Origin: an uncultured archaeon
Lineage (GTDB): Archaea > Asgardarchaeota > Lokiarchaeia > Sigyniarchaeales > SOKP01
Assembly (NCBI GenBank): GCA_964525635.1
Contig: CAZGJX010000083.1
Location: 1 to 20,960, forward strand
Direction: 5' to 3'
DNA: 20,960 nt
In this document: in pieces, positions 1,896 through 18,015 of the stretch
Layout: every line of letters starts with the position of its first letter
How positions within the stretch are numbered: position 1 is the stretch's first letter
Notes under the pieces: generated by a model
Told to the model about the DNA's origin: nothing
Database searches by the model: none
Seen by the model: the letters and a program-made list of their open reading frames with translations, nothing else
Made by a program: the position numbers and the translations under genes

Positions 1896-3296
1896 TTAAT
1901 CCCAATTATCAAGGGCATATTCCATATATTCAATTGCTTTTAATTCATTAGATTTTGCCGTATCTAATAAGGATATACCTTGATCTACAGTCTTATTATT
2001 TAATATATTTGAATCTTGTTCAAAATAAGGAAATAATTCCGAGTATTCTTCTAGATTATGTTTAATTTTCCTATAATGTTTATTTGCTTGATTAAGAAAT
2101 TTTTTTGAGGATTGATTAGGTGTGCTATTTGATAGCCAATCTAAATATTCTGAACATGTATTTTTTGCATCATTGTAAAATTTAGCGAGGAATGAATTAC
2201 CAAAAATATTAAAATTATTTAAGTGATAATTTTCAAGAATATTACTCCATTCTGAATAAGCATCTGGACCTGCTACAAAATTAGATTTTGCCACATTAAT
2301 ACCCTTTGCAAATAAAATTGCACGTTTTAAAGAATCCTTATTGATATCTCTATTTTCATTATTGGAAAATCGGTCTTTGAAATAAAAATAATGAAATATA
2401 TCTAAAGGTTGGAGTTCATCATATTTTATTGGAGTATCTTCTTTCCCAAATAATCTAAAATAGGTACTTACTAAATAACTATCTTTCTGATAACCCCGTA
2501 TAATACCATAAGCAGGAACTCTTAATCCCCACATAATTACTGGTGTATCATCTATTTGAATTAATTGTTTTATCTTCTCAAAAATTTCTTCTGCTAATTT
2601 CAAATCTTCCTCAACTAATTTTCGAGATCTTGGATTTTTCATTTTTATTCTAACATTAATGATATTCCAACCAAAATCCTCTGTTCCTTTTTGAATTAAA
2701 TCCCATGCCGTATCAGATAATAGACTTTCAGCAAGAAAAGAAATCCATCCTTTTTGGATATTTGTTATAAAACTATACCCCGATTGTCCACCTACATGTA
2801 TATAATTATATTTCATTCCTAAGGACATTAAAATTCCGGATACGGATGAGATATATGAATTCCATCCTCCTTGATAAATTGGATTTGAGCCCACCATTTT
2901 TCCTAAAGGACTTAAAGGTAAACGATTGTATTTAAATTGCTCACTTATATAATCCTGTTCAATTTGAAGTTTCATATGTGATCTTTGATAAGTTAAAACA
3001 ATATTTTTAACAAAATCTATTCCATCTATACTTATTTTATATAGTCCTCTTTGTGTTCTTTTAATTAATCCAGAATTGATCAGACTAGATATATGATGTA
3101 TCAAGCTAGTCTTTTTTAATTGAGTAGTATCTAAAAAAAAAGAAAATAGTTTGGGACTTAAGAGAAGTTCAGCAAGGATTTTAAGCCTAATTGAATTCCC
3201 AGCAGATTTTAATATATTTGATATATTATCAAGAGAATCAATTAATATATTATATATTTTTTTATTATCGATAATATTATCCAATGTATCATTCAC
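1896..3296 (-). CDS. ArsR-like winged helix-turn-helix protein fused to a large uncharacterised C-terminal domain
   Basis: N-terminal LKSAGNSIRLKILAELL...KTSLIHHISSLINSGLIKRTQRGLYKIS is an ArsR-type wHTH. The roughly 330-aa C-terminal region (GGQSGYSF...GPDAYSEW...LFPY) is of uncertain function. Confidence 0.75.
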   Translation of the reverse strand: MNDTLDNIIDNKKIYNILIDSLDNISNILKSAGNSIRLKILAELLLSPKLFSFFLDTTQLKKTSLIHHISSLINSGLIKRTQRGLYKISIDGIDFVKNIVLTYQRSHMKLQIEQDYISEQFKYNRLPLSPLGKMVGSNPIYQGGWNSYISSVSGILMSLGMKYNYIHVGGQSGYSFITNIQKGWISFLAESLLSDTAWDLIQKGTEDFGWNIINVRIKMKNPRSRKLVEEDLKLAEEIFEKIKQLIQIDDTPVIMWGLRVPAYGIIRGYQKDSYLVSTYFRLFGKEDTPIKYDELQPLDIFHYFYFKDRFSNNENRDINKDSLKRAILFAKGINVAKSNFVAGPDAYSEWSNILENYHLNNFNIFGNSFLAKFYNDAKNTCSEYLDWLSNSTPNQSSKKFLNQANKHYRKIKHNLEEYSELFPYFEQDSNILNNKTVDQGISLLDTAKSNELKAIEYMEYALDNWD

Positions 3297-3777
3297 TTAT
3301 AAATTAATTATAAACGGTTCAAGAATTTTATAAATTTATAATTTTTATGAAAAAATTACAATTTTTCTTAAAAACCTTTTTTTTTACTTATATCTAAGCA
3401 ATTATTTCTAATTAATTTATCCTAATTTTCCCGAATAATAGAACTAATTTTATAACCCTTTATAATAAAAGTATTTTTAGAATATTTTTTTTGAAATAGT
3501 CTAAATGAATTATTAATATATTTATCGAATATATTCAATGTTAGATATCGAATAAACTAAACTTATTATTACCAACTTAAAATTGCATATAATACTATTA
3601 TCATTCTTAAATTAGTTATTGTAAACAATATTATAGGAATATATATAATCTATTATTCTAATTTATAAAACAATATTCTAATTTAAATTCAATAATCTTA
3701 ATAAAATGATTAAAATCGGTTAAATAATCTTATTGAAATCAACAATTTTTTATCTATTTTTGCATTAATTTATAAAT

Positions 3778-4218
3778 ATGAGTAAACCTAAATATGAGAT
3801 AGTAAAGTGGGAAAGTTATGAAATAGGAGATTCTGCGTCTCATACAAAAACCATCACGGAAACAGATATAATTCTATTTGCAGGAATTACAGGAGATTTC
3901 AATCCATTACATATGGATGAAGAATTTGCAAAAATCCAGATGTTTAAAAAGCGGATAATACATGGAGCATTCAGTGTTGGATTAATATCAGCAGTTTTAG
4001 GCACTAAATTATTTGGTCCAGGAATTTTATATGGTTCCCAAAATGTTAAATTTTTAAAACCAGTCTTCATAGGTGACACTTTATCTGCTGTAGCAACTGT
4101 TAAAGATAAATATACAAAAAAGGAAGGAAAATTAAAATTTCTTAAAATTGAAACAAAAGTATATAACCAAAATGATGAAGTTGTTACTGATGGCGAAGCA
4201 GAAATAATCTTTATGTAA
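3778..4218 (+). CDS. MaoC/PhaJ-family (R)-specific enoyl-CoA hydratase/dehydratase (hot-dog fold)
   Basis: Hydratase-2 motif FAGITGDFNPLHMD (catalytic Asp/His), RIIHG and FLKPVFIGDT. Confidence 0.93.
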   Translation: MSKPKYEIVKWESYEIGDSASHTKTITETDIILFAGITGDFNPLHMDEEFAKIQMFKKRIIHGAFSVGLISAVLGTKLFGPGILYGSQNVKFLKPVFIGDTLSAVATVKDKYTKKEGKLKFLKIETKVYNQNDEVVTDGEAEIIFM

Positions 4219-4228
4219 ATTTGCTTTG

Positions 4229-4330
4229 TAATAATATTATTTTAAGTTTATTTTTTTTCTGTTTTTTTTTATTTCTTAATTTTTATTGGAGATTAGACAA
4301 CATTTTTTTGTTAATTTTTTTTTTTAATTT
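4229..4330. terminator. Probable oligo(T) termination region between the convergent MaoC and adenosyltransferase genes
   Basis: Several long T runs on the + strand just after the MaoC stop, and A-rich sequence further right (T on the - strand). Consistent with archaeal-type U-rich terminators. Confidence 0.4.
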
Positions 4331-4426
4331 TAGTTTAAATAAGCAAATTAAAGAAGAAAATTAATAATTAACAAAAACGGAGATGAGAAAGTTTTTACAA
4401 TAATATTATCAATTTTAGGCACAAAC

Positions 4427-4963
4427 TTAATACTCTATACCATATCTAGCAATAATCCCTTTAGCGGAATAATAATGTTTCACTTGTTTCATTTCTGTAA
4501 CTAAATCAGCTACTTCTTTCAATTTTGGATGAATTTTTTGTCCACCAGTAAGTATTAATTCAACCTTCTCAGGTTTTTTTTCAATCAATTTCATTACATC
4601 ATCAATAGAAACGACTCCCATCTCGACTGCTACTCCAATTTCATCCAAAATAATTATATCATATTCATTTTTATTAAATACACTCTCAGCGAAGTTTATA
4701 GCTTTTTTTCCTTGATCTAAGTCAATATCTCTTGGACTTTCAATAAGTTCTTTAGTTCCAAATTGCTTTACTTGAAAATAAGGATTCTGTTTTATTGCTT
4801 CGATCTCCCCATATTCCATATTACCTTTCATAAATTGAATCATAAATACCTTAAAACCATGACCAGTTGCTCGAAAGCCCTGACCAATAGCTGCTGTTGT
4901 TTTTCCCTTACCTCTTCCATAGTAGCATTGAATTAATCCATATTCTAATCTTTTTCTCATCAT
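4427..4963 (-). CDS. cobO: ATP:cob(I)alamin adenosyltransferase, CobA/BtuR/CobO type
   Basis: P-loop YYGRGKGKTTAAIG, IQFMKG, YDIIILDE, ADLVTEM...KH and C-terminal ARYGIEY. Confidence 0.93.
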   Translation of the reverse strand: MMRKRLEYGLIQCYYGRGKGKTTAAIGQGFRATGHGFKVFMIQFMKGNMEYGEIEAIKQNPYFQVKQFGTKELIESPRDIDLDQGKKAINFAESVFNKNEYDIIILDEIGVAVEMGVVSIDDVMKLIEKKPEKVELILTGGQKIHPKLKEVADLVTEMKQVKHYYSAKGIIARYGIEY

Positions 4964-5155
4964 TAAATACCTTTTTAATTCTATTAAATATTAATTTGGA
5001 GTTATTAATCATATTAATTTCAAATTTGATTTATTATTATTTAAGAATTATTTATTATTCAATCAAAATTTTATCGATTCTTTAATTATTTATAAGATGT
5101 TTCAAAAGTTATCATATATTAATCAATGAAAATTAAAATAAATTTAAGATAACTG

Positions 5156-6037
5156 ATGCCACAGACTAAATTAATGGATTTGGAAGAAGCTATATCCACA
5201 TACATAGATGATGGAGATCTAATTGGGATTGGAGGATTATCCTTTTGGAGAAAACCAATAGCTACTTGCAGGGAAATCATTAGACAAAAAAAGAAAGAGC
5301 TTTCAATCTGTACTTTTGTGGGAGGTTTAGATGTTGATATGCTAATTGCGGCGGGATGTGTATCGGAAATCAGATCTTCTTTTGTAGGAATGGAAGTATT
5401 TGGAATGGCCCCTAATTATCGAAAAGCAGTTCAAGAAGCTAGTATAAAAATTATTGAAGAAACTGAAGCTTCAATAGCATTGGGATTAAAAGCCTCATAT
5501 TTAAAAGTACCTTTTATGCCATTGAAAGGAATAATCGGAACAGATTTTCCAAAAATTAGAAAGGATATAAAAGAATTTGAAGATCCTTTAGGTAGTGGAA
5601 TTAAATTAATGGCTCTTCCAAAAATAGATTTAGATGTTGCTATATTACATGTTCCCTATGCAGATGAGTATGGAAATGGGAATGTGGCTGGAGCAGTTTG
5701 GTTAGATGATGATATGGCTAAGACGGCTAAAAAGACCATTATTACTTGTGAAAAAATAGTTGAATTGAATGATATGATAAATTTACCAGGAAAAGCACAA
5801 TTGCCTATGCAGACAACAAAAGCAGTAGTTAAAGTTCCATTTGGAGCTCATCCAACTTCTTGCTATGACAAATATACATTTGATGCCTTGCATATTCAAA
5901 AATATATGAAAATTGATTTTAAAGATTATAAAAAGAAATATATTAATTTAGATTCTCATACACAGTATTTAGAAGAAGTGGGAGGGTCGCAGATGATTTC
6001 AAATATTAATCTACAAACGAAAAATACTTCAAATTGA
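5156..6037 (+). CDS. Family I CoA-transferase-like protein, alpha subunit (GctA/CatI/IpdA-like)
   Basis: KLMDLEEAI...DGDLIGIGG, DMLIAAGCV, VPFMP, DVAILHVPYADEYGN and VVKVPFGAHPTSC are typical of GctA-type subunits. Confidence 0.9.
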   Translation: MPQTKLMDLEEAISTYIDDGDLIGIGGLSFWRKPIATCREIIRQKKKELSICTFVGGLDVDMLIAAGCVSEIRSSFVGMEVFGMAPNYRKAVQEASIKIIEETEASIALGLKASYLKVPFMPLKGIIGTDFPKIRKDIKEFEDPLGSGIKLMALPKIDLDVAILHVPYADEYGNGNVAGAVWLDDDMAKTAKKTIITCEKIVELNDMINLPGKAQLPMQTTKAVVKVPFGAHPTSCYDKYTFDALHIQKYMKIDFKDYKKKYINLDSHTQYLEEVGGSQMISNINLQTKNTSN

Positions 6038-6068
6038 ATTAAAAAAAAAAGAGAAGGATTAAAATAAA

Positions 6069-6944
6069 ATGAGTGAAGAATCAAAAGATTATTCAATAGA
6101 TGAAATGATGGCCGTTTTAATGGCTAGAGAAGTCAGAAATGATGATGTTATGATTGTTGGTGTTGCTACTCCAATGGTTTGGTCAGCATTTACTTTAGCA
6201 AAATTAACTAATGCACCAAACGCTATTTATCATTATATTATGGGAAATACTTTTGTCTTCGAACCATGCCAAGTTTCATTATTATATCTTGAAATGAATA
6301 CAACAAGGGCTTATCGATTTCAAAACTCTGGAGAATGTACCTTGGAATCACTTCCATCTGATAATTTGACTACAATAGAATTTTTTAGACCTGCTCAAAT
6401 TGATCAATATGGAAATACAAATAATATTTGTATCGGAGATTGGTATAAACCTAAAATTAGATTACCAGGATGTGCGGGGATAGCAGATTTCTCAATGTTT
6501 TATTCACGTGGGACTTTTTTATACACTCCAAGACATGATACTAGAAGATTTGTTCCAAAGGTTGATTTTATTTCAGGAGTTGGTTTTCAAAATGGAAACA
6601 ATCCTTTATGTGGAGGTGCAGGACCTCAATCGGTTATAACCAATTTGGCTTATCTAGACTTTGAAGAAAGAAGTAAAACTATGAGATTGGCATCTTTACA
6701 TCCAGATATTGATATTGAGACAATTATAAAATCAACTGGTTTTGATTTAATTATTCCAAATAAAATAAAGAATACAAAACCTCCTACTAAAAAAGAAATA
6801 AAATTATTAAGAGAAAAGATAGATCCATTAAATATAAGGAAGTTAGAAGTGCTTACTGGAAAGGAAAGGGAAGAATTATTAAGTATCATTATAGAAAAAG
6901 AATTAGCAATGACAAATAAAATTCCTTTATTGTTAAATTCTTAG
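6069..6944 (+). CDS. Family I CoA-transferase-like protein, beta subunit (GctB/CatJ/IpdB-like), canonical catalytic Glu absent
   Basis: YSIDEMMAV, LAKLTNAPN, AQIDQYGNTN, RLPGCAGIAD, FVPKVDFISG, VITNL and MRLASLHP. Starts 31 bp after the alpha subunit stop on the same strand. Confidence 0.9.
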   Translation: MSEESKDYSIDEMMAVLMAREVRNDDVMIVGVATPMVWSAFTLAKLTNAPNAIYHYIMGNTFVFEPCQVSLLYLEMNTTRAYRFQNSGECTLESLPSDNLTTIEFFRPAQIDQYGNTNNICIGDWYKPKIRLPGCAGIADFSMFYSRGTFLYTPRHDTRRFVPKVDFISGVGFQNGNNPLCGGAGPQSVITNLAYLDFEERSKTMRLASLHPDIDIETIIKSTGFDLIIPNKIKNTKPPTKKEIKLLREKIDPLNIRKLEVLTGKEREELLSIIIEKELAMTNKIPLLLNS

Positions 6945-6955
6945 ATATATATTTA

Positions 6956-7933
6956 TCAATCATCCTTTTTAATTTTAAGATGAATATGATAATATAATTC
7001 TTTAAGTTCATTATATATATCAAATTTGTTATCTATTAATTTTAAAGCAATATTATTCAATTCATTATTGTTAAAGATTCGTTCAAAAATTATTTTTTCA
7101 ATAGTATCAACCATAGATTCTTTAATTTTATACATATAGCGTTGTTTCATTTTTATTTTGATTTTTTCAGAAAGTTCCAAATATTCTTTATGTTCATATA
7201 TTTTTTCAATTAATTCATCAATACCTTCACCAGTTATAGAATTTGTCATCAAAACGGGAGGTCTCCAACCAGATTGAGTAATTGTAGAATCATCTAACAT
7301 AAGTTCAATTTGAACAGCAATGTCTTCTCCACCCAAATCTTTCTTATTTATATTGTATATCTCACCTATTTCAATAATTCCAGCTTTTTGAATTTGAATA
7401 GCATCACCATAACCAGGCACTAAAACTACAACAGTGCTATAAACTAAGTTATGGATTTCAAGTTCTGCTTGTCCAACACCAACAGTCTCAATTATTATTA
7501 TATCCATACCAAAAGCTTCATACAATAAAGTTATGTCGAATACTGCTCTGGAGATTCCCCCCGCATAACCACGAGTTGCTAAACTTCTTATAAAAACATT
7601 AGGATGACATGTAATCTTGGTCATTCTTATACGATCTCCTAGAAAAGCCCCACCACTAAAAGGTGATGTAGGATCAACAGATATAATTCCAACTTTTTTA
7701 CCATCTTCTGCTAGTGTCATTGCAACTTGACCCGTTAGAGTACTTTTTCCAACACCCGGAGAGCCTGTGATTCCTATAATATATGAATCATGTTTTAGAT
7801 TATTAAAATCTTTAAATATCTTTGATGCTGATGAGGGATCATTTTCAACCAAAGTTATCAATTTTGCAAGAGCAATTTTATCTTTTTCTTTAAATCTCTG
7901 ACATAATTGGTCAATATTATCGTTTGTATTCAA
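6956..7933 (-). CDS. meaB: MeaB/ArgK/MMAA GTPase chaperone for AdoCbl-dependent acyl-CoA mutase
   Basis: ALAKLITLVEN, Walker A GITGSPGVGKST, VDPTSPFSGGAFLGDRIRM, VFIRSLATRG, IETVGVGQAE, GDAIQIQKAG and NKKD. TTG start with GGGTG upstream. Confidence 0.96.
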   Translation of the reverse strand: MNTNDNIDQLCQRFKEKDKIALAKLITLVENDPSSASKIFKDFNNLKHDSYIIGITGSPGVGKSTLTGQVAMTLAEDGKKVGIISVDPTSPFSGGAFLGDRIRMTKITCHPNVFIRSLATRGYAGGISRAVFDITLLYEAFGMDIIIIETVGVGQAELEIHNLVYSTVVVLVPGYGDAIQIQKAGIIEIGEIYNINKKDLGGEDIAVQIELMLDDSTITQSGWRPPVLMTNSITGEGIDELIEKIYEHKEYLELSEKIKIKMKQRYMYKIKESMVDTIEKIIFERIFNNNELNNIALKLIDNKFDIYNELKELYYHIHLKIKKDD

Positions 7934-8136
7934 TAATAGGCACCCTGTGGTAAATATATGTGGTCTTTTTTAGTATATCACAATTTATGGTTTAATAGAT
8001 ATTACTTATCTAATAAATTAAGAAATATTAGGTTCAATAATTATTTTATGAAAATACTCATAGTTTAATTCTAATTTGAATTAATGACTTTAAATAAATA
8101 ATTAAATTGAAATAATATAGATCCAAAATACTGAAT

Positions 8137-8535
8137 TTACTTATTAATACTACTTGTAATAAAATCTACTATATCTTTTGTAATTGTTCCTGGACCATAA
8201 ATATTTGCAACACCTAATTCCTTTAATTTTGGAAAATCATTTACAGGTATTACTCCTCCTAAAATTATCAAGAAATTGTTTTTTACGCCTTTTTTATCTA
8301 ATTTTTCGATTAGTTGCTTCGTAAAAATCGTATGCGCTCCTGAATGGATACTCATCCCTATCACATCTACATCTTCATGAATTGCTGACTCGACTATTTG
8401 ATCAATACTTTGAAATCCCCCATAAATAAGCTCCATACCTGCATCTCTTAAAGCACGAGCCACAACTATAGATCCTCTGAAATGACCTCCGATTCCAGGC
8501 TTTGAGATTAAAACTCTTATTTTTTTTTCAGCCAT
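8137..8535 (-). CDS. Cobalamin-binding small subunit of acyl-CoA mutase (variant motif GGHFRG)
   Basis: KIRVLISKPG-IGGH-FRG, ARALRDAGME, EDVDVIGMSIHSGAH, LGGVIP and YGPGT. ATG at 8535 preferred over the TTG at 8541. Confidence 0.93.
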   Translation of the reverse strand: MAEKKIRVLISKPGIGGHFRGSIVVARALRDAGMELIYGGFQSIDQIVESAIHEDVDVIGMSIHSGAHTIFTKQLIEKLDKKGVKNNFLIILGGVIPVNDFPKLKELGVANIYGPGTITKDIVDFITSSINK

Positions 8536-8750
8536 AATCAATTCAATTTAATTAAAATCTAATTTCCATAATTAATTTTAAATTTTTAATAGTCAATAAT
8601 TTTAAATTTTTCCGATTTAGATTATATATTGTTTTAAAATATTAGTATATTTATTTAAATATCAAATTAATAAATTAAATAATAATAAAATACTTAACCT
8701 CATAGAAAAATAAAACAAAATATAAATTAAATTAATGTTTATAGATTAAA

Positions 8751-9227
8751 ATGCCAGGATTAACGCATATAGGAATTGCTTTTATTGTGGGAGCAGTAGT
8801 ACCTAGTGTTCCTCTTTGGGCTTTATTGATTGCCACTGAATTTATTGATATAATTTGTATAATTCTTTGCATAATAGGAATTGAAAAAATACCTAATAAA
8901 GAAAATGCACCTATAGCACCTTATTCTCATGGACTTTTTATGGCGTTGATTTGGACATTAGTTGCAACTTTAATTACTTGGTTCATTAGTTACGATACAT
9001 TTACAACAATAATCATTGGAAGTGTTGTTTTTAGTCATTGGATTCTAGATTTTATCGCATCCCCAATGACTTATACATATCCTAAGGATACTGGAAAACC
9101 TATTTTTTTCCAAAATTCGCGTAAAATAGGTCTTGGTTTATGGAGATCAAAAATAATAGTTATTATTGGTGAATATATTATTACTCTCTTTGGTATTACC
9201 ATTTATATAATATCATTATTTTTATAA
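8751..9227 (+). CDS. Putative membrane-bound metal-dependent hydrolase (YdjM-like)
   Basis: Several hydrophobic segments with an N-terminal His (THIG), EFID, PYSHGL and SHWILD, as in YdjM/DUF457-like proteins. Confidence 0.7.
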   Translation: MPGLTHIGIAFIVGAVVPSVPLWALLIATEFIDIICIILCIIGIEKIPNKENAPIAPYSHGLFMALIWTLVATLITWFISYDTFTTIIIGSVVFSHWILDFIASPMTYTYPKDTGKPIFFQNSRKIGLGLWRSKIIVIIGEYIITLFGITIYIISLFL

Positions 9228-9296
9228 TATTATGCAGATTCTTGGAAATAATCAAAAAATATGATATTACTAAGAAAGAAAAATAATTTTACAATA

Positions 9297-10970
9297 TTAA
9301 ATTGCTAATGGAGGTTCCCAAATACTCCATATTTCTCTATAAATATCACATATTTCGCCAACAGTAGCTCCTTCTTTTGTAGCCTTCATTATTATTGGCA
9401 TTACATTTTCCTCTCGCTCACATACATTTCGGAGTTCATCTAATATTGTTTCTAGTTTATTATTATCTCTCTTCTCTTTTAATTTTTTAATTCTTTTTAT
9501 TTCAATATCCATCGCTTCTTCATTTGTTTTAAAAACATCGCAGATGGTATCATATGAGATTGGATATTTATTTACACCTAACATAATTTCAGCTCCATTC
9601 TCCATTCGTTTTTGTCTCTTATGAAAAGCATCTCTCATCTCTTTATATAACCATCCAGTTGATAATGCTTTATCTATAGTACCAATACTTTTAATTTTAT
9701 CCATATATTTCCATACTCTTTCTTCGATTTCATCAGTTAGCCATTCTACATAATATGATCCAGCTAGAGGATCAACAGTATTGGTAATACGTGATTCATT
9801 TTCTATGATTTGTTGAGTTCTGAGAGCTACTAATGCAGCTTGTTTAGATGGAAGGCAAATCGCCTCATCATATGAATTAGTATGTAATGATTGGCATCCT
9901 CCTAATGTTGCTTCAAGTGCTTGGATTGCAGTTCTAGCTATATTAATTTGAGGCATTTGTGCGGTTAGAGAACTTCCTGCTGTCTGTACATGAAATCTAA
10001 ATTGAAGTGATTTTGGATCTTTAGCATTATATTGCTCTTTTATTAATTTTGCCCAAATTCTCCTTGCTGCTCTATATTTTGCAATTTCTTCAAAAAAATC
10101 CTTATGAGCTGAAAGGTGAAAAGCTAATCTATTAACGAAATCATCAACTTTCCATCCTCTTTCAATTAAATTTTCAATATGAGAACATGCGCTGGAGAAA
10201 ACAAATCCTAATTCTTGAACTGCATCAATACCTCCTTCTCTGTAATTATAACCTGTAAAATTAATTGGGTGCCACTTAGGTACGTTTTTCATTGGTACAG
10301 TCCATTCAATAAAATCACAAGCTAAACGTAGTAAATGATCTGGAGGGACATTTTTATATGGGATATATCCAACAGTCATTGTTAAAATATCATTTTGCGT
10401 TGTACCCATAAGATTTTTAATATCATAACCCTTTATTTTTGCCATATTAAAATACATTGAACAAACTGGAGCAGAAGTAAATGGTTCAACAACTAAAGCA
10501 ACACTAATTTTATCAATTGGAATATCTTTAGTAAGTGCAAATAAACTATCTATACAATATAGAGGAACACCTGAAGTACCCACTTCTGGAGCACCATCTT
10601 TATTAGTTGGATCAATACCATTAAATGTTAAAGCATCAACAGCAGCACTATAACCTGTTTCTCCATGCTTATATAAGAATTTCCAACGCTCATTAGTCTC
10701 TTCGGGAGTGCCATGACCACTGAATAATCGCATTGTCCATACTCTTCCCCTATACATAGATGAGTAGGGCCCTCTTGTGTAAGGAGGTTCTCCAGGAAAT
10801 CTTACATTCTCAAGATAGTCTCCTTTTATATCTAGGGGAGTATATAATTTCTTAACAGGGATTCCTGAATCTGTTTCAAATCTCTGATCACTTTCTTTTG
10901 TATCTTTATGTTTTTTTTCCCATTCTTCTTTTTCTTGTCTTATTCTTTGTAAATAATCCTTATCATACAT
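9297..10970 (-). CDS. AdoCbl-dependent acyl-CoA mutase, large (TIM-barrel, substrate-binding) subunit; methylmalonyl-CoA mutase family, specificity unknown
   Basis: 557 aa. TDSGIPVKKLYTP, PGEPPYTRGPY, GTTQNDIL, FFEEIAKYRAARRIW, RFHVQTAGSSLTAQ, QSLHTNSYDEA, DPLAGSYYVE and ATVGEI. No fused B12 domain. Confidence 0.96.
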   Translation of the reverse strand: MYDKDYLQRIRQEKEEWEKKHKDTKESDQRFETDSGIPVKKLYTPLDIKGDYLENVRFPGEPPYTRGPYSSMYRGRVWTMRLFSGHGTPEETNERWKFLYKHGETGYSAAVDALTFNGIDPTNKDGAPEVGTSGVPLYCIDSLFALTKDIPIDKISVALVVEPFTSAPVCSMYFNMAKIKGYDIKNLMGTTQNDILTMTVGYIPYKNVPPDHLLRLACDFIEWTVPMKNVPKWHPINFTGYNYREGGIDAVQELGFVFSSACSHIENLIERGWKVDDFVNRLAFHLSAHKDFFEEIAKYRAARRIWAKLIKEQYNAKDPKSLQFRFHVQTAGSSLTAQMPQINIARTAIQALEATLGGCQSLHTNSYDEAICLPSKQAALVALRTQQIIENESRITNTVDPLAGSYYVEWLTDEIEERVWKYMDKIKSIGTIDKALSTGWLYKEMRDAFHKRQKRMENGAEIMLGVNKYPISYDTICDVFKTNEEAMDIEIKRIKKLKEKRDNNKLETILDELRNVCEREENVMPIIMKATKEGATVGEICDIYREIWSIWEPPLAI

Positions 10971-11143
10971 TATTTAACCACGTAATTCAAAAATAGTAGA
11001 TTCCTATAAATTGTAATCCAAATAAAAAAATGTTCTAAGAAATTTATATTCTTTTAAATTTAAAGGTTTAAAATTAGTATTTTTAATATTTTTAAATTAT
11101 TTCCAAATATAGCAAGATTTAAAAAAAAGAAAAAGAGAGAGAT

Positions 11144-12442
11144 TTAGTCAAGAGCTTTCCATTTTTTTATAATTACACCAGGAATTTCAAGATTAGCCTG
11201 CATTGGGGTACATCCAGGATAAAAGTGTGTATTTGAAGTAATATTCTTGTGTTTTTCAGCACAGTCTCCAATTACAAAAACTTCTTTATCGCTACCTTTA
11301 ACATCCTCAGGAATATAAGCATTTTTTCCCAATATAATAATGGGTTCCTCATTATGTTTTTTAAATTTAGGAAATGTAAACGCAAGTCCATCACAAATAG
11401 CTCTTGTTAACGCTTTACATACATAACAAGGACAACCCTCGAGTATTCGTACACCAGAATATATTCCATTACATTCATTAGAGGGTTTTATAAAATCTCG
11501 TTTTATTTTATCGATTGATTCTCCTATGACATTAATTTTATCAAGATCCCTTGGTCCAGCACCAAGATGTGCTCCTAAACGGATAGTTCTAATATCCATT
11601 GGATCAAATCCCATTACTCGAGCACATACAGCATCAGTTGAAACTACATTATCTCCAGCTATAATCGTATTCATATCTGTTATTGTCATATATTCATGAC
11701 CTCTCATTGGGATTGGTCCTTGTCCTTGAACTGCCCAAATACCTGAGATAACCGTAAGGCGTGGAGGTAATGTTCGTGCAATATCAACAAATTTTAGACT
11801 TAATTTTCCATCATGAGCAATCATTTTATCTTCCCATTTGAATATCCCTTGATAATTTTTCATACCTAAAGTAACAGTTTCAAATGAGTGTGTTTTCATA
11901 GCAGGACAATTTATAAAAGCAACATCTTCTCTAGTTAATATTTCTGGTACATGAATCTTTGACATTGCATTTGCAGGTTTTTTAATTTCAATTTCTACTC
12001 TTTCCATGTTATTAAAATCAACAGCTTTTCCTCCCATTGATTCAACAGCTTTTTGTACACCAGAAATATCTAAAGTTATGCATGCCTGCCAACGATCATG
12101 ATAATCAAACGCACAAGTTTCACCAGTTATTACTTCTTTTGCATTTGCTTTTTCTAGTGCTAATTTTGTTATGGCCGCTAGGACTCTCGCATCAGTATTA
12201 GCAGCACCTTGAAGATCAATACACTCTTCACCAGTTTTTTTATCAACTTTTATCGAACCGAAATATGTACAACAATTTGGTTTTAATACAACAGTTTCTC
12301 CTGGTTTTATGTATTTATCAATACCACCAAGTAAATCGAATATTTCTTCAACCATTTTTAAAACTACTTGAAATTCTTCTTCAGTATATTTACTTGGGAG
12401 TCCTGGAATTTCATCACGATGCACAATAGCAACTTTAGTCAA
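11144..12442 (-). CDS. DUF362-family Fe-S protein with C-terminal Cys-rich domain
   Basis: LLGGIDKYIKPGETVVLKPN, INCPAMKTH, TLGMKNYQG, GQGP and DAVCARVMGFDP; C-terminal GCPCYVC...GDCA...PGCTP. Likely start is TTG at 12442 (MTKVAIV), with the GTG at 12451 being part of the AAGGTG RBS. Confidence 0.85.
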   Translation of the reverse strand: MTKVAIVHRDEIPGLPSKYTEEEFQVVLKMVEEIFDLLGGIDKYIKPGETVVLKPNCCTYFGSIKVDKKTGEECIDLQGAANTDARVLAAITKLALEKANAKEVITGETCAFDYHDRWQACITLDISGVQKAVESMGGKAVDFNNMERVEIEIKKPANAMSKIHVPEILTREDVAFINCPAMKTHSFETVTLGMKNYQGIFKWEDKMIAHDGKLSLKFVDIARTLPPRLTVISGIWAVQGQGPIPMRGHEYMTITDMNTIIAGDNVVSTDAVCARVMGFDPMDIRTIRLGAHLGAGPRDLDKINVIGESIDKIKRDFIKPSNECNGIYSGVRILEGCPCYVCKALTRAICDGLAFTFPKFKKHNEEPIIILGKNAYIPEDVKGSDKEVFVIGDCAEKHKNITSNTHFYPGCTPMQANLEIPGVIIKKWKALD

Positions 12443-12576
12443 TAAATTCACCTTAATTTATTTAGTTAAAAAAAATATTTTAAATGTACTTTAAGCTAAT
12501 AAAAAATAATAACTAAAAAAAATTTATTCTTAAAGAATTTGAAATTTAAAGGATTAAATATTTTATATATTGAATT

Positions 12577-13368
12577 ATGAAAAAATTTGAAAATAAAGTA
12601 GTCTTCATAACTGGAGGCGGATCAGGACTAGGAGAAAAAATTGCAAAAGATTTCGCTGAAGATGGTGCTAATGTAGTAATTTTTGATATTAGTGCTGAAA
12701 ATGGAAAACGTGTTGAATCGGAAATTAAAGAAAAAGGTGGAGAGGCTTTATTTACAGAAGGTGATGTTAAAGATTCCAAAACTGTTAAGGAATGTGTAGC
12801 AAAAGCTTTTGAAAAATATGGTACTATAGATTTTCTTATAAATTCTGCTGGTATTTTAAGAGATGGTTTAATTCATAAGTTACCTGAAGAAAAATGGGAT
12901 TTAGTTATCGATATTAACCTTAAAGGTTGTTTTTTATGTCTTCAAGAATGTTCTAAAAGATGGATTCAACATGCTAAAGAAAATCGAAAAGAACACATCG
13001 CAGATTATCCCGATAAAAGAGTGATTAATATAAGCAGTCAAGCTGCTGAAGGAAACATCGGTCAAATAAGTTATGCTTCTTCTAAAGCAGGTATAATAGG
13101 ATTAACTAAAACAGCAGCTATTGAGTTAATCAGATATAATATTAAAACACATGCAATAATGCCAACATTAATTGAAACTCCAATCCTTGGTGAATTATTA
13201 GAAAAAGAAGATGGTAAATGGAGAAAATATTATGAAGGGAGAATTCCATTAGGAATTGGAAAACCCAAGTATGTCTCTGATGCAATTCGATTTCTTTGTA
13301 GTGATGATTCTTGGTTTATGAACGGAGTAATTTTACCAATAAACGGTGGCAGGTTAGGACCACTTTAA
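12577..13368 (+). CDS. Classical SDR oxidoreductase, FabG/PhaB-like 3-oxoacyl-thioester reductase
   Basis: TGGGSGLG, INSAGILRD, WDLVIDINLKG, INISS, GNIGQISYASSKAG (YxxxK) and INGG. Confidence 0.9.
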   Translation: MKKFENKVVFITGGGSGLGEKIAKDFAEDGANVVIFDISAENGKRVESEIKEKGGEALFTEGDVKDSKTVKECVAKAFEKYGTIDFLINSAGILRDGLIHKLPEEKWDLVIDINLKGCFLCLQECSKRWIQHAKENRKEHIADYPDKRVINISSQAAEGNIGQISYASSKAGIIGLTKTAAIELIRYNIKTHAIMPTLIETPILGELLEKEDGKWRKYYEGRIPLGIGKPKYVSDAIRFLCSDDSWFMNGVILPINGGRLGPL

Positions 13369-14456: not shown

Positions 14457-14855
14457 ATGCCAGATCTAGATAATAATAAATCCAATGAATCAAAATTATT
14501 TCTTGAGTTAGTTCCATGTGTAAGATGTAGAAATGCATTTATGCGTAGACCTGGCAGTAATGAAAAAGATATATGTGAAAATTGTATAAGATTAGAAAAA
14601 AGAAAGCAAGAATTAGAGAAAGATATATCAGAAGTACAGCATAAAATTGAACTGAAAATTGATAAAATGAGACATGAGATGTCTCAGAATAATAAAAAAT
14701 TTAATAAACAATATTTTGTAGAAAGGATTAAAAAAGGATCTGATGTTTTAACAAAATCAATTGAATTGCTAAAAAAGATTGAAGAAACGAATGATGAGAA
14801 GTATATCGAAGAATATCAAAAATTATTTGATAAAATAAAGAAGGAATATTCCTAA
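14457..14855 (+). CDS. Hypothetical protein: C4 zinc finger followed by coiled coil
   Basis: CVRC-x15-CENC followed by K/E-rich helical sequence. GGTGA RBS upstream of the ATG. Confidence 0.75.
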   Translation: MPDLDNNKSNESKLFLELVPCVRCRNAFMRRPGSNEKDICENCIRLEKRKQELEKDISEVQHKIELKIDKMRHEMSQNNKKFNKQYFVERIKKGSDVLTKSIELLKKIEETNDEKYIEEYQKLFDKIKKEYS

Positions 14856-16330: not shown

Positions 16331-16837
16331 TTATTTTCTTGCTTTTCTTGACTTTTTGGTAATTTCATTGGTAATATAAAATCCAACAACATAACATATT
16401 AGAATTATAAAAAATGAAATAGCTCCAACAATATAAAACCATCTTGTAAAATAACCCCAAAGCTCTCTTATCAAAAACTCAAAAAGCCACATAACTGCTC
16501 CTGCAGCTGTTACAAATATTATATCCCATAATGCATTCATCCATGAGTCTTTTCCACGTTGTCGCCACCCCCAATGATAAATGAGTGTATTTTCTAAGAG
16601 TTCCCATAATATTGCAACTAAGAATGTAAATAAAAATACCATCCACCATGCAATAATACTTGCACCCCGACCATACATAAATTCTGGAATGGTGATTGTA
16701 AGTGAAAATACAAGAAAAGCAGCAATTCCTATATCCATATGACCCCAGCTATAGAAATCCCAAGCAGATCGGCCAACATAGTCATCAACAAGCCCTACAA
16801 AAGGTATATATTTTTCTTCTTTTTTTTTTTCACTCAA
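16331..16837 (-). CDS. Membrane protein with H...WExxEN...DS..N...D motif (DUF2585-like)
   Basis: About 4 TM segments; DFYSWGH, WELLEN and DSWMNALWD. TTG start with AGTGA upstream. Confidence 0.65.
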   Translation of the reverse strand: MSEKKKEEKYIPFVGLVDDYVGRSAWDFYSWGHMDIGIAAFLVFSLTITIPEFMYGRGASIIAWWMVFLFTFLVAILWELLENTLIYHWGWRQRGKDSWMNALWDIIFVTAAGAVMWLFEFLIRELWGYFTRWFYIVGAISFFIILICYVVGFYITNEITKKSRKARK

Positions 16838-18015
16838 ATTAAATCACTTTTTTTTTATACATTTAACATTAAATTGCTAGTTTAAAAGTCTATAGTTATC
16901 GGATATCTATAGAAAGAAAAATATAATTTCTGATATAATAGAACCTCCAGAATTATATTAGTATAAAAATGTAGATATATTTTTTAAAATTATATCTAAT
17001 CAATTGAAAAAAGATAATATATTTAGATAAGAAATAACAGGTGTTTTTTTTTTATTAAATGAATGCTTATTTTCTTTAAGAATATTTCTAATTTTATATA
17101 GAGTATTTCAATTTGTCGGATATAGATTCAATTATAGTGTTTCTTTTTTTTTTCTGCTGTTTTTATCTATATTATTTCTCTTTTTAAAAGTCCTATTAGG
17201 TTTATCTAAGAAAATCACCTAAAATAACTAAGATATTTGTGTACAAAATTTCAAATTTTCATTGAAAAATCATATGAAATTAATTTAAAAAATGCGCCAA
17301 ATAATGAATGATCTCTTTAATAATAATTGTGTATTTCATGATCATAGGAATTATCTGCAAGAATAATCAAATCATTTTATATACTTAGGATAAGAGCTTT
17401 TATTCCGTTTTTCTCAATCTTTATTCTTATTAAAATTTTAATAAAATCTATATTTCTTTTGTATATTGCATTATAAATTAAATTTCAAAATTAATTTCGG
17501 TTAAATTAATAAAAAATAAGTGATGCACATCGAATAAAATGTAAGAAAAAATTTCATTTTTGTTTTAATTTATGAGCTTTTTTTCTGTATATGTTTATCC
17601 TTTAGAAGTATTAGGTAAATCAAATAATAATGCTTACAATACCATATCATAACAAAAGATTTGATTAAATAATCGCGCCAAGCGTTCAGAGAATTGACGA
17701 AAGATTTATTAATATGAAAAAACATATTATATATTAGAAAAACATTTTTCTATAATGTAGTGGAATGTTTGTTTTTAGCCATAATTTTAATTATTCCTCC
17801 ACAAAAATAATAAATAAAAGCTAATATAATTCTCAAGCATTCCATTACTTTATTTATTTCTTTTTTTTTTTAATAAAAATAGATTTCTCAATGATACATA
17901 TTTAAAAAAAAACACATTATTCATTATGGAAAAAAAAAATTATATGATTTCAACTATTGCTGAATTAATAATTTTTATTATATAAATATTAGAAAAATTA
18001 AGGGAATTTGAGGAT

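Follow-up and report, generated by a model that had tools for sequence, protein, structure and literature searches.

An apparently Asgard-restricted clade of B12-dependent acyl-CoA mutases with a non-canonical active site and recurrent, variable metabolic neighbours

Acyl-CoA mutases that depend on adenosylcobalamin (AdoCbl) carry out a radical 1,2-shift of the thioester carbon of their substrates. Methylmalonyl-CoA mutase (MCM) holds the carboxylate of its substrate in a clamp formed by Tyr89 and Arg207 and uses His244 as the general acid; in isobutyryl-CoA mutase (ICM; IcmAB or IcmF, 4XC6), the specificity residues are presumably Phe80 and Gln198. Other close relatives of the enzyme considered here are 2-hydroxyisobutyryl-CoA mutase (HCM; HcmAB of Aquincola tertiaricarbonis, 4R3U) and the (R)-3-hydroxybutyryl-CoA-specific mutases. 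The subject of this analysis is a split acyl-CoA mutase and its gene neighbours in an uncultured archaeon of the Asgard phylum (assembly GCA_964525635.1; 4.45 Mb, ~27% G+C, completeness estimate 100%). The genes lie on contig CAZGJX010000083.1 (C83), which was analysed over its entire 20,960 nucleotides and is called the window below. Together, the large subunit, the B12-binding small subunit, the loading and repair GTPase MeaB and a CobA-type adenosyltransferase would form a complete AdoCbl set. The system is best described, as far as its sequences go, as a member of the AdoCbl acyl-CoA mutase family with a putatively new specificity, because the residue tests for MCM, ICM and HCM all fail.

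The large subunit matches the family model PF01642 over nearly its whole length (residues 32-548 on model positions 1-511 of 512) and scores 550 bits with TIGR00641 (cut-off 304). The closest solved structure is HcmA (4r3u; 418 bits, residues 9-551 aligned), with human MCM (338 bits) and Propionibacterium MCM (310 bits) scoring lower. The motifs that matter for specificity read RLFSG, SAAVDALTFNG, TVGYIPY, GYNYREGGIDA and RLAFHL. Phe83 (RLFSG) takes the place of MCM Tyr89, Tyr202 (TVGYIPY) that of MCM Arg207 and HcmA Gln208, Asn242 (GYNYRE) that of MCM His244, and His285 (RLAFHL) that of MCM Phe287; Ala110 is the equivalent of HcmA Asp117. Both carboxylate-binding residues of MCM and its general acid are replaced, and the pocket is bulkier and aromatic, with Asn242 and His285 as new polar residues. 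Across 21 orthologues from six families this signature does not change, except that position 202 is Tyr or Phe. The residues that handle the radical are retained in all orthologues, where GY(241), RFH(327)VQ(329)TAG and NSYDE(369)A supply the equivalents of Tyr243, His328, Gln330 and Glu370.

The split subunits, the MeaB partner and the lack of Arg207 (as expected for an uncharged substrate) are shared with HcmAB and the (R)-3-hydroxybutyryl-CoA-specific mutases; HcmA is also the top structure match, and (R)-3-hydroxyacyl-CoA enzymes are found in the genome context of the window. The window enzyme differs from HcmAB, however, in having Phe for Ile90, Ala for Asp117, Tyr or Phe for Gln208 and Asn for the His, and its clade has an extra His at the Phe287-equivalent position. 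The likeness to ICM consists of Phe at the Tyr89 position, the missing carboxylate-binding Arg and dependence on MeaB, but the clade has Tyr or Phe for Gln198 and Asn for the His, both invariant. With MCM the window enzyme has in common the Pfam family, the fold, the 'His-on' motif (in the orthologues) and the MeaB and adenosyltransferase partners, whereas Tyr89, Arg207 and His244 are replaced, the NF006944 score falls below the cut-off (445 bits vs 876) and the pathway partners are missing.

The original prediction had considered a role in propionate metabolism improbable, and the genome agrees. A role in propionate or methylmalonyl metabolism appears unlikely because the whole genome contains neither a recognisable methylmalonyl-CoA epimerase (the top TIGR03081 match scores 21.9 bits, where the cut-off is 115, and its frame is broken by stops) nor any match to the carboxyltransferase family PF01039; the absence of an epimerase and an acyl-CoA carboxylase had been reported for the window, where it is borne out, and thus extends genome-wide. 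The Phe, Tyr and Asn at the Tyr89, Arg207 and His244 positions point the same way. Two genes in the genome match PF01642, one in the window and one on contig C128 (5115-7168, locus L053), and neither is of the Tyr/Arg type. The C128 mutase has the ICM-type Phe/Gln/His combination (RQFAG, IAQKSW, GYH) and a small subunit with a canonical DGHDRG. Given this separate ICM-type paralogue, a plain ICM identity for the window mutase was rejected. The MeaB gene in the window is the only one in the genome; the C128 mutase, which has leucine-rich repeat proteins and a radical SAM gene as neighbours, lacks one and so presumably uses that of the window. The C128 protein also reads AFHFPT where other mutases have AFD(L/M)PT, with His for Asp.

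The distribution of the mutase was surveyed in 400 genomes of the Asgard phylum. Families f1, f5, f6, f7 and f21 contain orthologues that are 66-100% identical, as do three genomes of f3 and f13; everything beyond this clade is at most 48% identical, and single-contig f3 genomes contain solely such a paralogue. When 1.84 billion representatives were searched, the best match from beyond the clade (P0124) had 46% identity. The clade itself is highly conserved, with ~80% identity within the family and 89% between the window protein and its nearest orthologue, which is from the same genus. In a FastTree phylogeny of 130-odd representatives, the clade falls inside a 25-member radiation (support 0.93) whose pocket positions are highly variable and in which no member has an MCM, ICM or HCM signature; the tree distances from the clade to HCM-like, ICM-like and MCM-like representatives are about equal. 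Its immediate sisters are P0124 and a protein from Ca. Methanolliviera, with YNYRE, FHL and WHP common to both. These results support a distinct, seemingly Asgard-restricted and uncharacterised mutase clade. No report of a non-MCM acyl-CoA mutase was found in the literature on Asgard archaea and acyl-CoA or isobutyryl-CoA mutases. Of 138 representatives labelled 'methylmalonyl-CoA mutase' (P0124-P0273), ~41 have the MCM pattern and ~8 the ICM pattern at Tyr89/Arg207/His244, as counted from the first alignment and a clade-only alignment, the second tree alignment being unreliable at the Arg207 column (shifted loop). There appear to be many uncharacterised specificity classes, or inactive subunits, among metagenomic large subunits.

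The second unusual component is a two-subunit protein with the family I CoA-transferase fold. Both subunits match PF01144 (49.8 and 47.4 bits; cut-off 23) and resemble Acidaminococcus GctAB most, followed by IpdAB and AibAB: the GctA-like subunit scores 124 bits with GctA, 99 with IpdA and 73 with AibA, and the GctB-like subunit 108 bits with GctB, 61 with the IpdAB counterpart and 59 with the AibAB counterpart. In the alignment of the GctB-like subunit with 1poi_B, the region of GctB Glu54 ('ESG') is occupied by AIYHYIMGNTFV, which lacks acidic residues and does not vary among 17 orthologues; this stretch has a low HMMER posterior in the pairwise alignment, and the exact residue equivalence is uncertain. 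Glu104 of the GctA-like subunit aligns with high posterior to the one position at which 6coj_A departs from 6co6_A (Ala for Glu), which we take to be Glu105 of IpdA, reportedly the catalytic residue of this ring-cleaving hydrolase. Glu104 is invariant in 13 GctA-like orthologues; at the same position GctA has Gln and AibA has Gly. Because the GctB-like subunit is without Glu54 and the GctA-like subunit has an IpdA-type Glu104, a role as CoA-transferase seems very unlikely for the pair.

Two described offshoots of the same fold offer a comparison. In AibAB, Cys56B replaces the transferase Glu and Glu72B is nearby (PMC7756340). No Cys is present in the aligned GctB-like stretch at the equivalent of AibB Cys56. 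The pair shares with AibAB (3-methylglutaconyl-CoA decarboxylase, 5MZW) the two-subunit fold and the lost beta-subunit Glu, but not Cys56, and it has Glu104 where AibA has Gly and no isovalerate-biosynthesis context. With IpdAB (cholesterol ring-C hydrolase, 6CO6/6CON) it shares the fold, the lost beta-subunit Glu and the match of Glu104 to IpdA Glu105, so that at the residue level the pair resembles IpdAB more than AibAB. It differs in being closer overall to GctAB and in having no steroid context: none of IpdC, IpdF, EchA20 and FadE30-33 was recognisable among the recurrent neighbours at the 61 loci compared below.

GctB-like orthologues occur in f1 (102 of 134 genomes), f5, f6, f7 and f21 and in no other family, and the same families hold the mutase clade. 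Counted by hand in f1, where related genomes are not independent samples, 89 genomes have both genes, 17 the mutase only, 13 the GctB-like gene only and 15 neither. The two are associated and not obligately coupled, since three of the f1 genomes with only the GctB-like gene are at least 99% complete. In f21 the two genes are ~475 kb apart.

For the comparison of gene neighbourhoods, 60 orthologues (11 genera of f1, plus f3, f5, f6, f7 and f21) were taken with up to 20 kb of surrounding sequence, giving 61 loci with the window. A panel of 26 proteins was mapped by tblastn, and a gene was counted if it lay within ~10 kb of the mutase. The small subunit is present at 60 of the 61 loci and MeaB, following it, at 50. 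Next in frequency are an acyl-CoA dehydrogenase (ACAD; 19 loci) and EtfB and EtfA (17 each), which usually form an ACAD-EtfB-EtfA group upstream of the mutase and divergently transcribed. The GctB-like gene was counted at 18 loci and the GctA-like gene at 13, a helix-turn-helix regulator with an ICMT-like protein at 18 and 15, respectively, and the adenosyltransferase at 11. The SDR (short-chain dehydrogenase/reductase) was counted at 9 loci, and orthologues 68-88% identical to that of the window at about 7, usually beside EtfA; a group of protein f32, HgdA and HgdB occurs at 7-8, the MaoC-type hydratase at 4 and the DUF362 protein at 3. In f5-f7 the module is large subunit, small subunit, MeaB and adenosyltransferase, the last directly after MeaB, and in f21 the flanks of the mutase hold thiolase/DUF35 pairs and SDRs. 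Firm synteny is limited to mutase, small subunit and MeaB, while the metabolic neighbours recur across genera in variable form. Co-occurrence of the mutase clade with its window neighbours, proposed earlier as a check, is supported by the family-level distribution of the GctB-like gene and weakened by the low counts for the MaoC, SDR and DUF362 genes.

The neighbour ACAD is closest to electron-bifurcating butyryl-CoA dehydrogenases (Bcd; 5ol2_C, 4l1f) and to the acryloyl-CoA reductase AcrC, and the neighbour EtfA, which has a ferredoxin domain, is closest to AcrA. The HgdA/B-like pair belongs to the 2-hydroxyacyl-CoA dehydratase/double-cubane reductase/BzdN family. In genus g11 it is part of a contiguous run on one strand: mutase large subunit, small subunit, MeaB, f32, HgdA, HgdB, an FAD-linked oxidase (GlcD-like) and a CCG/Fer4 protein (GlcF/HdrD-like), at L042:132-10863 with equivalents in L040, L074, L077, L079, L085 and L088. 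This run is the strongest operon-type link of the mutase to a metabolic partner. No BcrAD-type activase was found in the g11 stretch examined. Protein f32 has 161 aa and belongs to no family, and in L042 the run is followed by CdhC-like and CbiA/MinD-like genes.

A comparable arrangement is seen in another archaeal phylum. In Ca. Methanolliviera sp. GoM_asphalt (L094, CABGHH010000011.1, 1-8526), three mutase large subunit genes (one cut by the contig end) and two small subunit genes stand in a row that adjoins HgdAB-like genes and a BcrAD/BadFG activase. P0297 and 3567-5327(-), its two complete large subunits, fall into the non-canonical radiation of the window mutase; P0297 matches P0124 at 57% and is about as distant from the window mutase in the tree as P0124 is. 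This operon of Ca. Methanoliparia, in which mutase and BadDEG/HgdAB-like genes go together, has been noted without explanation (Laso-Perez et al. 2019, PMC6703427). The likeness lies in a mutase of the Asn244/His287 radiation beside a 2-hydroxyacyl-CoA dehydratase/benzoyl-CoA reductase-like pair; the differences are the phylum, the three mutase paralogues in a row and the presence of an activase gene.

Two types of nitroreductase-family protein also recur. One, with an N-terminal ferredoxin domain, directly follows MeaB at 11 of the 61 loci, and the other lies between the GctA- and GctB-like genes at 9 (L039:6804-7607, L037:15774-16574 and equivalents); neither has an orthologue in the genome of the window. 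Roles in cobalamin reduction or processing, or as enoyl reductases, are conceivable for them.

Within the window, the MaoC protein has as its top PDB matches 5cpg and 1iq6, both (R)-specific enoyl-CoA hydratases of the PhaJ type. The SDR is closest to 2et6_A, the (3R)-hydroxyacyl-CoA dehydrogenase domain of MFE-2 (207 bits vs 163 for the best FabG), and has the classical motifs ITGGGSGLG (TGxxxGxG) and YASSK. The Asp after beta-2 (VVIFDIS) suggests NAD rather than NADP as its cofactor. The earlier view that both enzymes are of the (R)-specific type is supported by these matches, the stereospecificity of the SDR being a prediction.

With a probability of roughly 0.45, we propose that the window encodes an Asgard-only AdoCbl mutase for an uncharged short acyl-CoA, which would act in a fermentation route where the GctAB-like pair cleaves a C-C bond. 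The gene identities, the clade with its signature, the synteny counts and the missing methylmalonyl-pathway partners are observed; we infer the substrate class, the order of the pathway and the role of the pair from the recurrent neighbours and from the residues. The substrate is probably uncharged, because the carboxylate-binding Tyr/Arg pair and His244 are lost, and probably has a chain of C3-C5: small acyl-CoAs of this size are suggested by the ACAD-Etf genes of Bcd/AcrC type and by the HgdAB-like genes with a GlcD/GlcF-like 2-hydroxyacid dehydrogenase. In the reaction, Co-C homolysis would come first; a methyl or methylene carbon would then lose an H, the CoA-thioester carbon would undergo the 1,2-shift, and the H would be given back. 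A branched or 2-hydroxy-branched C3-C5 acyl-CoA would thereby be interconverted with an (R)-3-hydroxyacyl- or acyl-CoA that has a straight chain; 2-hydroxyisobutyryl-CoA and (R)-3-hydroxybutyryl-CoA would be one such pair. This type of conversion is suggested because the neighbours comprise ACAD/EtfAB, HgdAB-like and GlcD/F-like proteins, the MFE-2-type SDR, the (R)-hydratase and thiolase/DUF35. One possible route would lead from isobutyryl-CoA via methacrylyl-CoA, 2-hydroxyisobutyryl-CoA, (R)-3-hydroxybutyryl-CoA and acetoacetyl-CoA to two acetyl-CoA, and would join the fermentation of 2-hydroxyacids and amino acids to an (R)-specific beta-oxidation-like path to acetyl-CoA. The GctAB-like pair might serve either as an IpdAB-like retro-Claisen hydrolase or as an AibAB-like decarboxylase, and a lactyl-CoA/3-hydroxypropionyl-CoA mutase would be a variant with a smaller substrate.

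Several observations weigh against this proposal. The hydroxyacyl-CoA mutase signature is absent (Ile90 to Phe and Asp117 to Ala in the 4r3u_A alignment), and position 202 is Phe in f21, so a hydroxyl at this position is not essential. Of the 13 f1 genomes with the GctB-like gene and no mutase, three are at least 99% complete, and 17 genomes show the reverse. The neighbourhood varies beyond mutase, small subunit and MeaB, with MaoC and DUF362 rarely near, and as all loci come from related metagenome-assembled genomes the counts are not independent. Neighbours found at other loci, namely ACAD-Etf, HgdAB and the nitroreductases, are without a close orthologue in the genome of the window. Finally, the enzyme may be impaired in this genome, where the ligand triad of the small subunit lacks its Asp and an inserted gene divides the operon.

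A bolder version of the proposal, which we regard as unlikely though by no means far-fetched, would make the protein a natural hydroxyacyl-CoA mutase in which Asn242 and His285 replace Asp117 and His. It would work on the 2-hydroxyisobutyryl/(R)-3-hydroxybutyryl or the lactyl/3-hydroxypropionyl pair and, with the dehydratase-like enzyme, an Acr/Bcd-type reductase and an IpdAB-like hydrolase, define an undescribed anaerobic route between 2-hydroxyacids and acetyl-CoA. The lactyl-CoA variant would be notable, if true, because lactyl-CoA/3-hydroxypropionyl-CoA mutase activity was called new-to-nature in 2024 (PMC11599936).

Three explanations compete seriously with the proposed route. The likeliest of them, although we consider it unlikely, is an isobutyryl-CoA/butyryl-CoA mutase (or a mutase for another plain alkyl-CoA), which would take valine-derived isobutyryl-CoA through butyryl-CoA, crotonyl-CoA, (R)-3-hydroxybutyryl-CoA and acetoacetyl-CoA to acetyl-CoA. 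Phe at the Tyr89 position as in ICM, the loss of Arg207 and the otherwise hydrophobic or aromatic pocket all fit such a substrate. The commonest metabolic neighbour, a Bcd-type short-chain ACAD with EtfAB, fits as well, and the hydratase, dehydrogenase and thiolase neighbours would fill out butyryl-CoA oxidation. However, the C128 paralogue is already of the exact ICM type and has a DGHDRG small subunit, the Gln198 and His positions are changed throughout the window clade, and the operon link to 2-hydroxyacyl-CoA dehydratase-like genes would be left unexplained.

It is more improbable that there is no shared pathway at all and that the mutase module simply sits in a fluid region of acyl-CoA fermentation genes, some of which might serve, for example, a hydroxyglutarate-type glutamate fermentation with the HgdAB-like proteins, the GctAB-like pair as decarboxylase and Bcd/Etf. 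In its favour, the small subunit and MeaB are near-universal and every other gene is found at fewer than one-third of the loci, the window genes alternate in strand, the GctB-like gene (13) and the mutase (17) each occur alone in f1 genomes, and the two are ~475 kb apart in f21; without PF01039, a non-biotin glutaconyl-CoA decarboxylase would be needed anyway. Against this, the same partners recur in several genera despite rearrangement, g11 has an unbroken one-strand run with mutase, MeaB and HgdAB-like genes, the mutase-HgdAB adjacency is repeated in an unrelated archaeal phylum, and the GctB-like gene and the mutase coincide at the family level.

The substrate class suggested in the original prediction, a branched, quaternary-carbon or cyclic acyl-CoA (for example isoprenoid- or sterol-derived), here taken as bulky, perhaps also alicyclic-derived, and as undergoing IpdAB-like ring opening and then (R)-specific beta-oxidation, fares worse and is doubtful. 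It could draw on the Glu of the GctA-like subunit at the IpdA Glu105 position together with the loss of the beta-subunit Glu as in IpdAB, on matches of the HgdA-like proteins to benzoyl-CoA reductase BzdN/BcrC models, on the related mutases beside BadDEG-like genes in the hydrocarbon degrader Ca. Methanolliviera, and on the cyclohexanecarboxyl-CoA dehydrogenase among second-tier ACAD matches. But Phe and Tyr/Phe make the pocket more bulky and not less, the best matches of the ACAD are C3-C4 enzymes, the GctAB-like pair scores higher against GctAB (124 and 108 bits) than against IpdAB (99 and 61), and steroid or benzoyl-CoA pathway markers were found in 0 of 61 neighbourhoods. Nothing points to an isoprenoid, sterol or quaternary-carbon substrate, and the partners suggest C3-C5 acyl-CoAs instead.

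Three features are private to this genome. In the small subunit, the motif reads KPGIGGHFRG: the Asp of DxHxxG, which hydrogen-bonds the cobalt-ligating His, is Gly, while the His, the Gly and the other fold motifs are kept. All 18 orthologues, including that of the same-genus genome G159, have DGHWRG, so that DxHxxG is kept in 18 of 19 small subunits. A sequencing error was rejected as the cause, as the exact 132-aa protein recurs in NCBI, JGI and an independent Logan assembly, on three contigs in all. GGHFRG is a lineage feature and not a property of the system; of the catalytic deviations originally claimed for three components, those of the large subunit (21 orthologues) and the Glu loss in the GctB-like subunit (17 orthologues) stand, and that of the small subunit holds for this genome alone. 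The second private feature is the open reading frame (ORF) at 8751-9227, which separates the two mutase genes and runs on the opposite strand. It is absent from the 60 other loci, in which the small subunit gene directly follows the large subunit gene, and is not part of the mutase system. A 34% identical paralogue lies on contig C177. The third is that the usual ACAD-Etf partner has no close orthologue here. That the system is decaying or impaired in this genome seems very improbable, even with GGHFRG, the inserted ORF and the failure of any ACAD/Etf orthologue to exceed 47% identity at an estimated completeness of 100%, as all frames are intact, the large subunit keeps every signature residue at 89% identity to its same-genus orthologue, the small subunit keeps its His and remaining fold motifs, and its identity to G159 (80%) is similar to that of MeaB (77%) and GctB (80%).

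The label 'methylmalonyl-CoA mutase' on Asgard proteins, which leads reconstructions to propionate metabolism, is probably wrong for this clade. The clade probably marks a fermentation route specific to these archaea, because it is highly conserved and, in the lineages that have it, no cultured representative carries it. A new specificity class of B12 mutase would be of interest to enzyme engineers, as known members act on only about six substrates and efforts to find a natural lactyl- or hydroxyacyl-CoA mutase are under way. In the Glu-less GctAB-like pair, the CoA-transferase fold would have a third functional offshoot besides IpdAB and AibAB. Beyond the original prediction, the analysis adds the neighbourhood and phyletic statistics, the private change in the small subunit, the missing methylmalonyl partners, the operon link to HgdAB-like genes and the equivalence of Glu104 to IpdA Glu105.

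Genes in the window were called from an ORF listing together with Pfam and NCBIfam scans (Table 1). The nine pathway-candidate genes that had been named for this stretch are all present, and all are intact open frames. Because they lie on alternating strands, in at least six transcription units, they form a neighbourhood and not an operon.

Table 1. Pathway-candidate genes and the interposed reading frame in the window
Feature	Positions	Strand	Evidence or remark
(R)-specific enoyl-CoA hydratase, MaoC/PhaJ type	3778-4218	+	PF01575, 96 bits; Asp-x4-His motif as GDFNPLH
ATP:cob(I)alamin adenosyltransferase, CobA/BtuR type	4427-4963	-	PF02572, 185 bits
GctA-like alpha subunit, family I CoA-transferase fold	5156-6037	+	PF01144
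GctB-like beta subunit, family I CoA-transferase fold	6069-6944	+	PF01144
MeaB G-protein chaperone	6956-7933	-	TIGR00750, 298 bits vs cut-off 241
B12-binding small subunit, 132 aa	8137-8535	-	PF02310; TIGR00640, 136 bits
Small membrane-protein ORF, 158 aa, hydrophobic	8751-9227	+	Weak YdjM-like Pfam match, below cut-off
Acyl-CoA mutase large (substrate-binding) subunit, 557 aa	9297-10970	-	PF01642, 553 bits
DUF362 protein	11144-12451	-	PF04015, 105 bits; immediately adjoins large-subunit gene
SDR, MFE-2-like (3R)-hydroxyacyl-CoA dehydrogenase (predicted)	12577-13368	+	adh_short, 170 bits

The DUF362 protein had been described as an Fe-S protein, a description that we rejected: the Pfam scan and inspection of the sequence found no Fer4 domain and no CxxCxxC motif in it, solely a C-terminal CxCxxC...C group. 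It is weakly linked to the mutase system. A second CobA-type adenosyltransferase, 79% identical to the window copy, is encoded on contig C50 (19405-19938, minus strand).

Elsewhere in the window, no tRNA or Rfam family was found, and a stretch of ~1.2 kb with ~19% G+C (16838-18015) contains no ORF of at least 80 aa. Three ORFs match no Pfam family: 1896-3296 (minus strand, 466 aa), 14457-14855 (plus strand, 132 aa) and 16331-16837 (minus strand, 168 aa). The latter two are kept in the same-genus genome G159, beside the same methyltransferase and ACT-domain genes.

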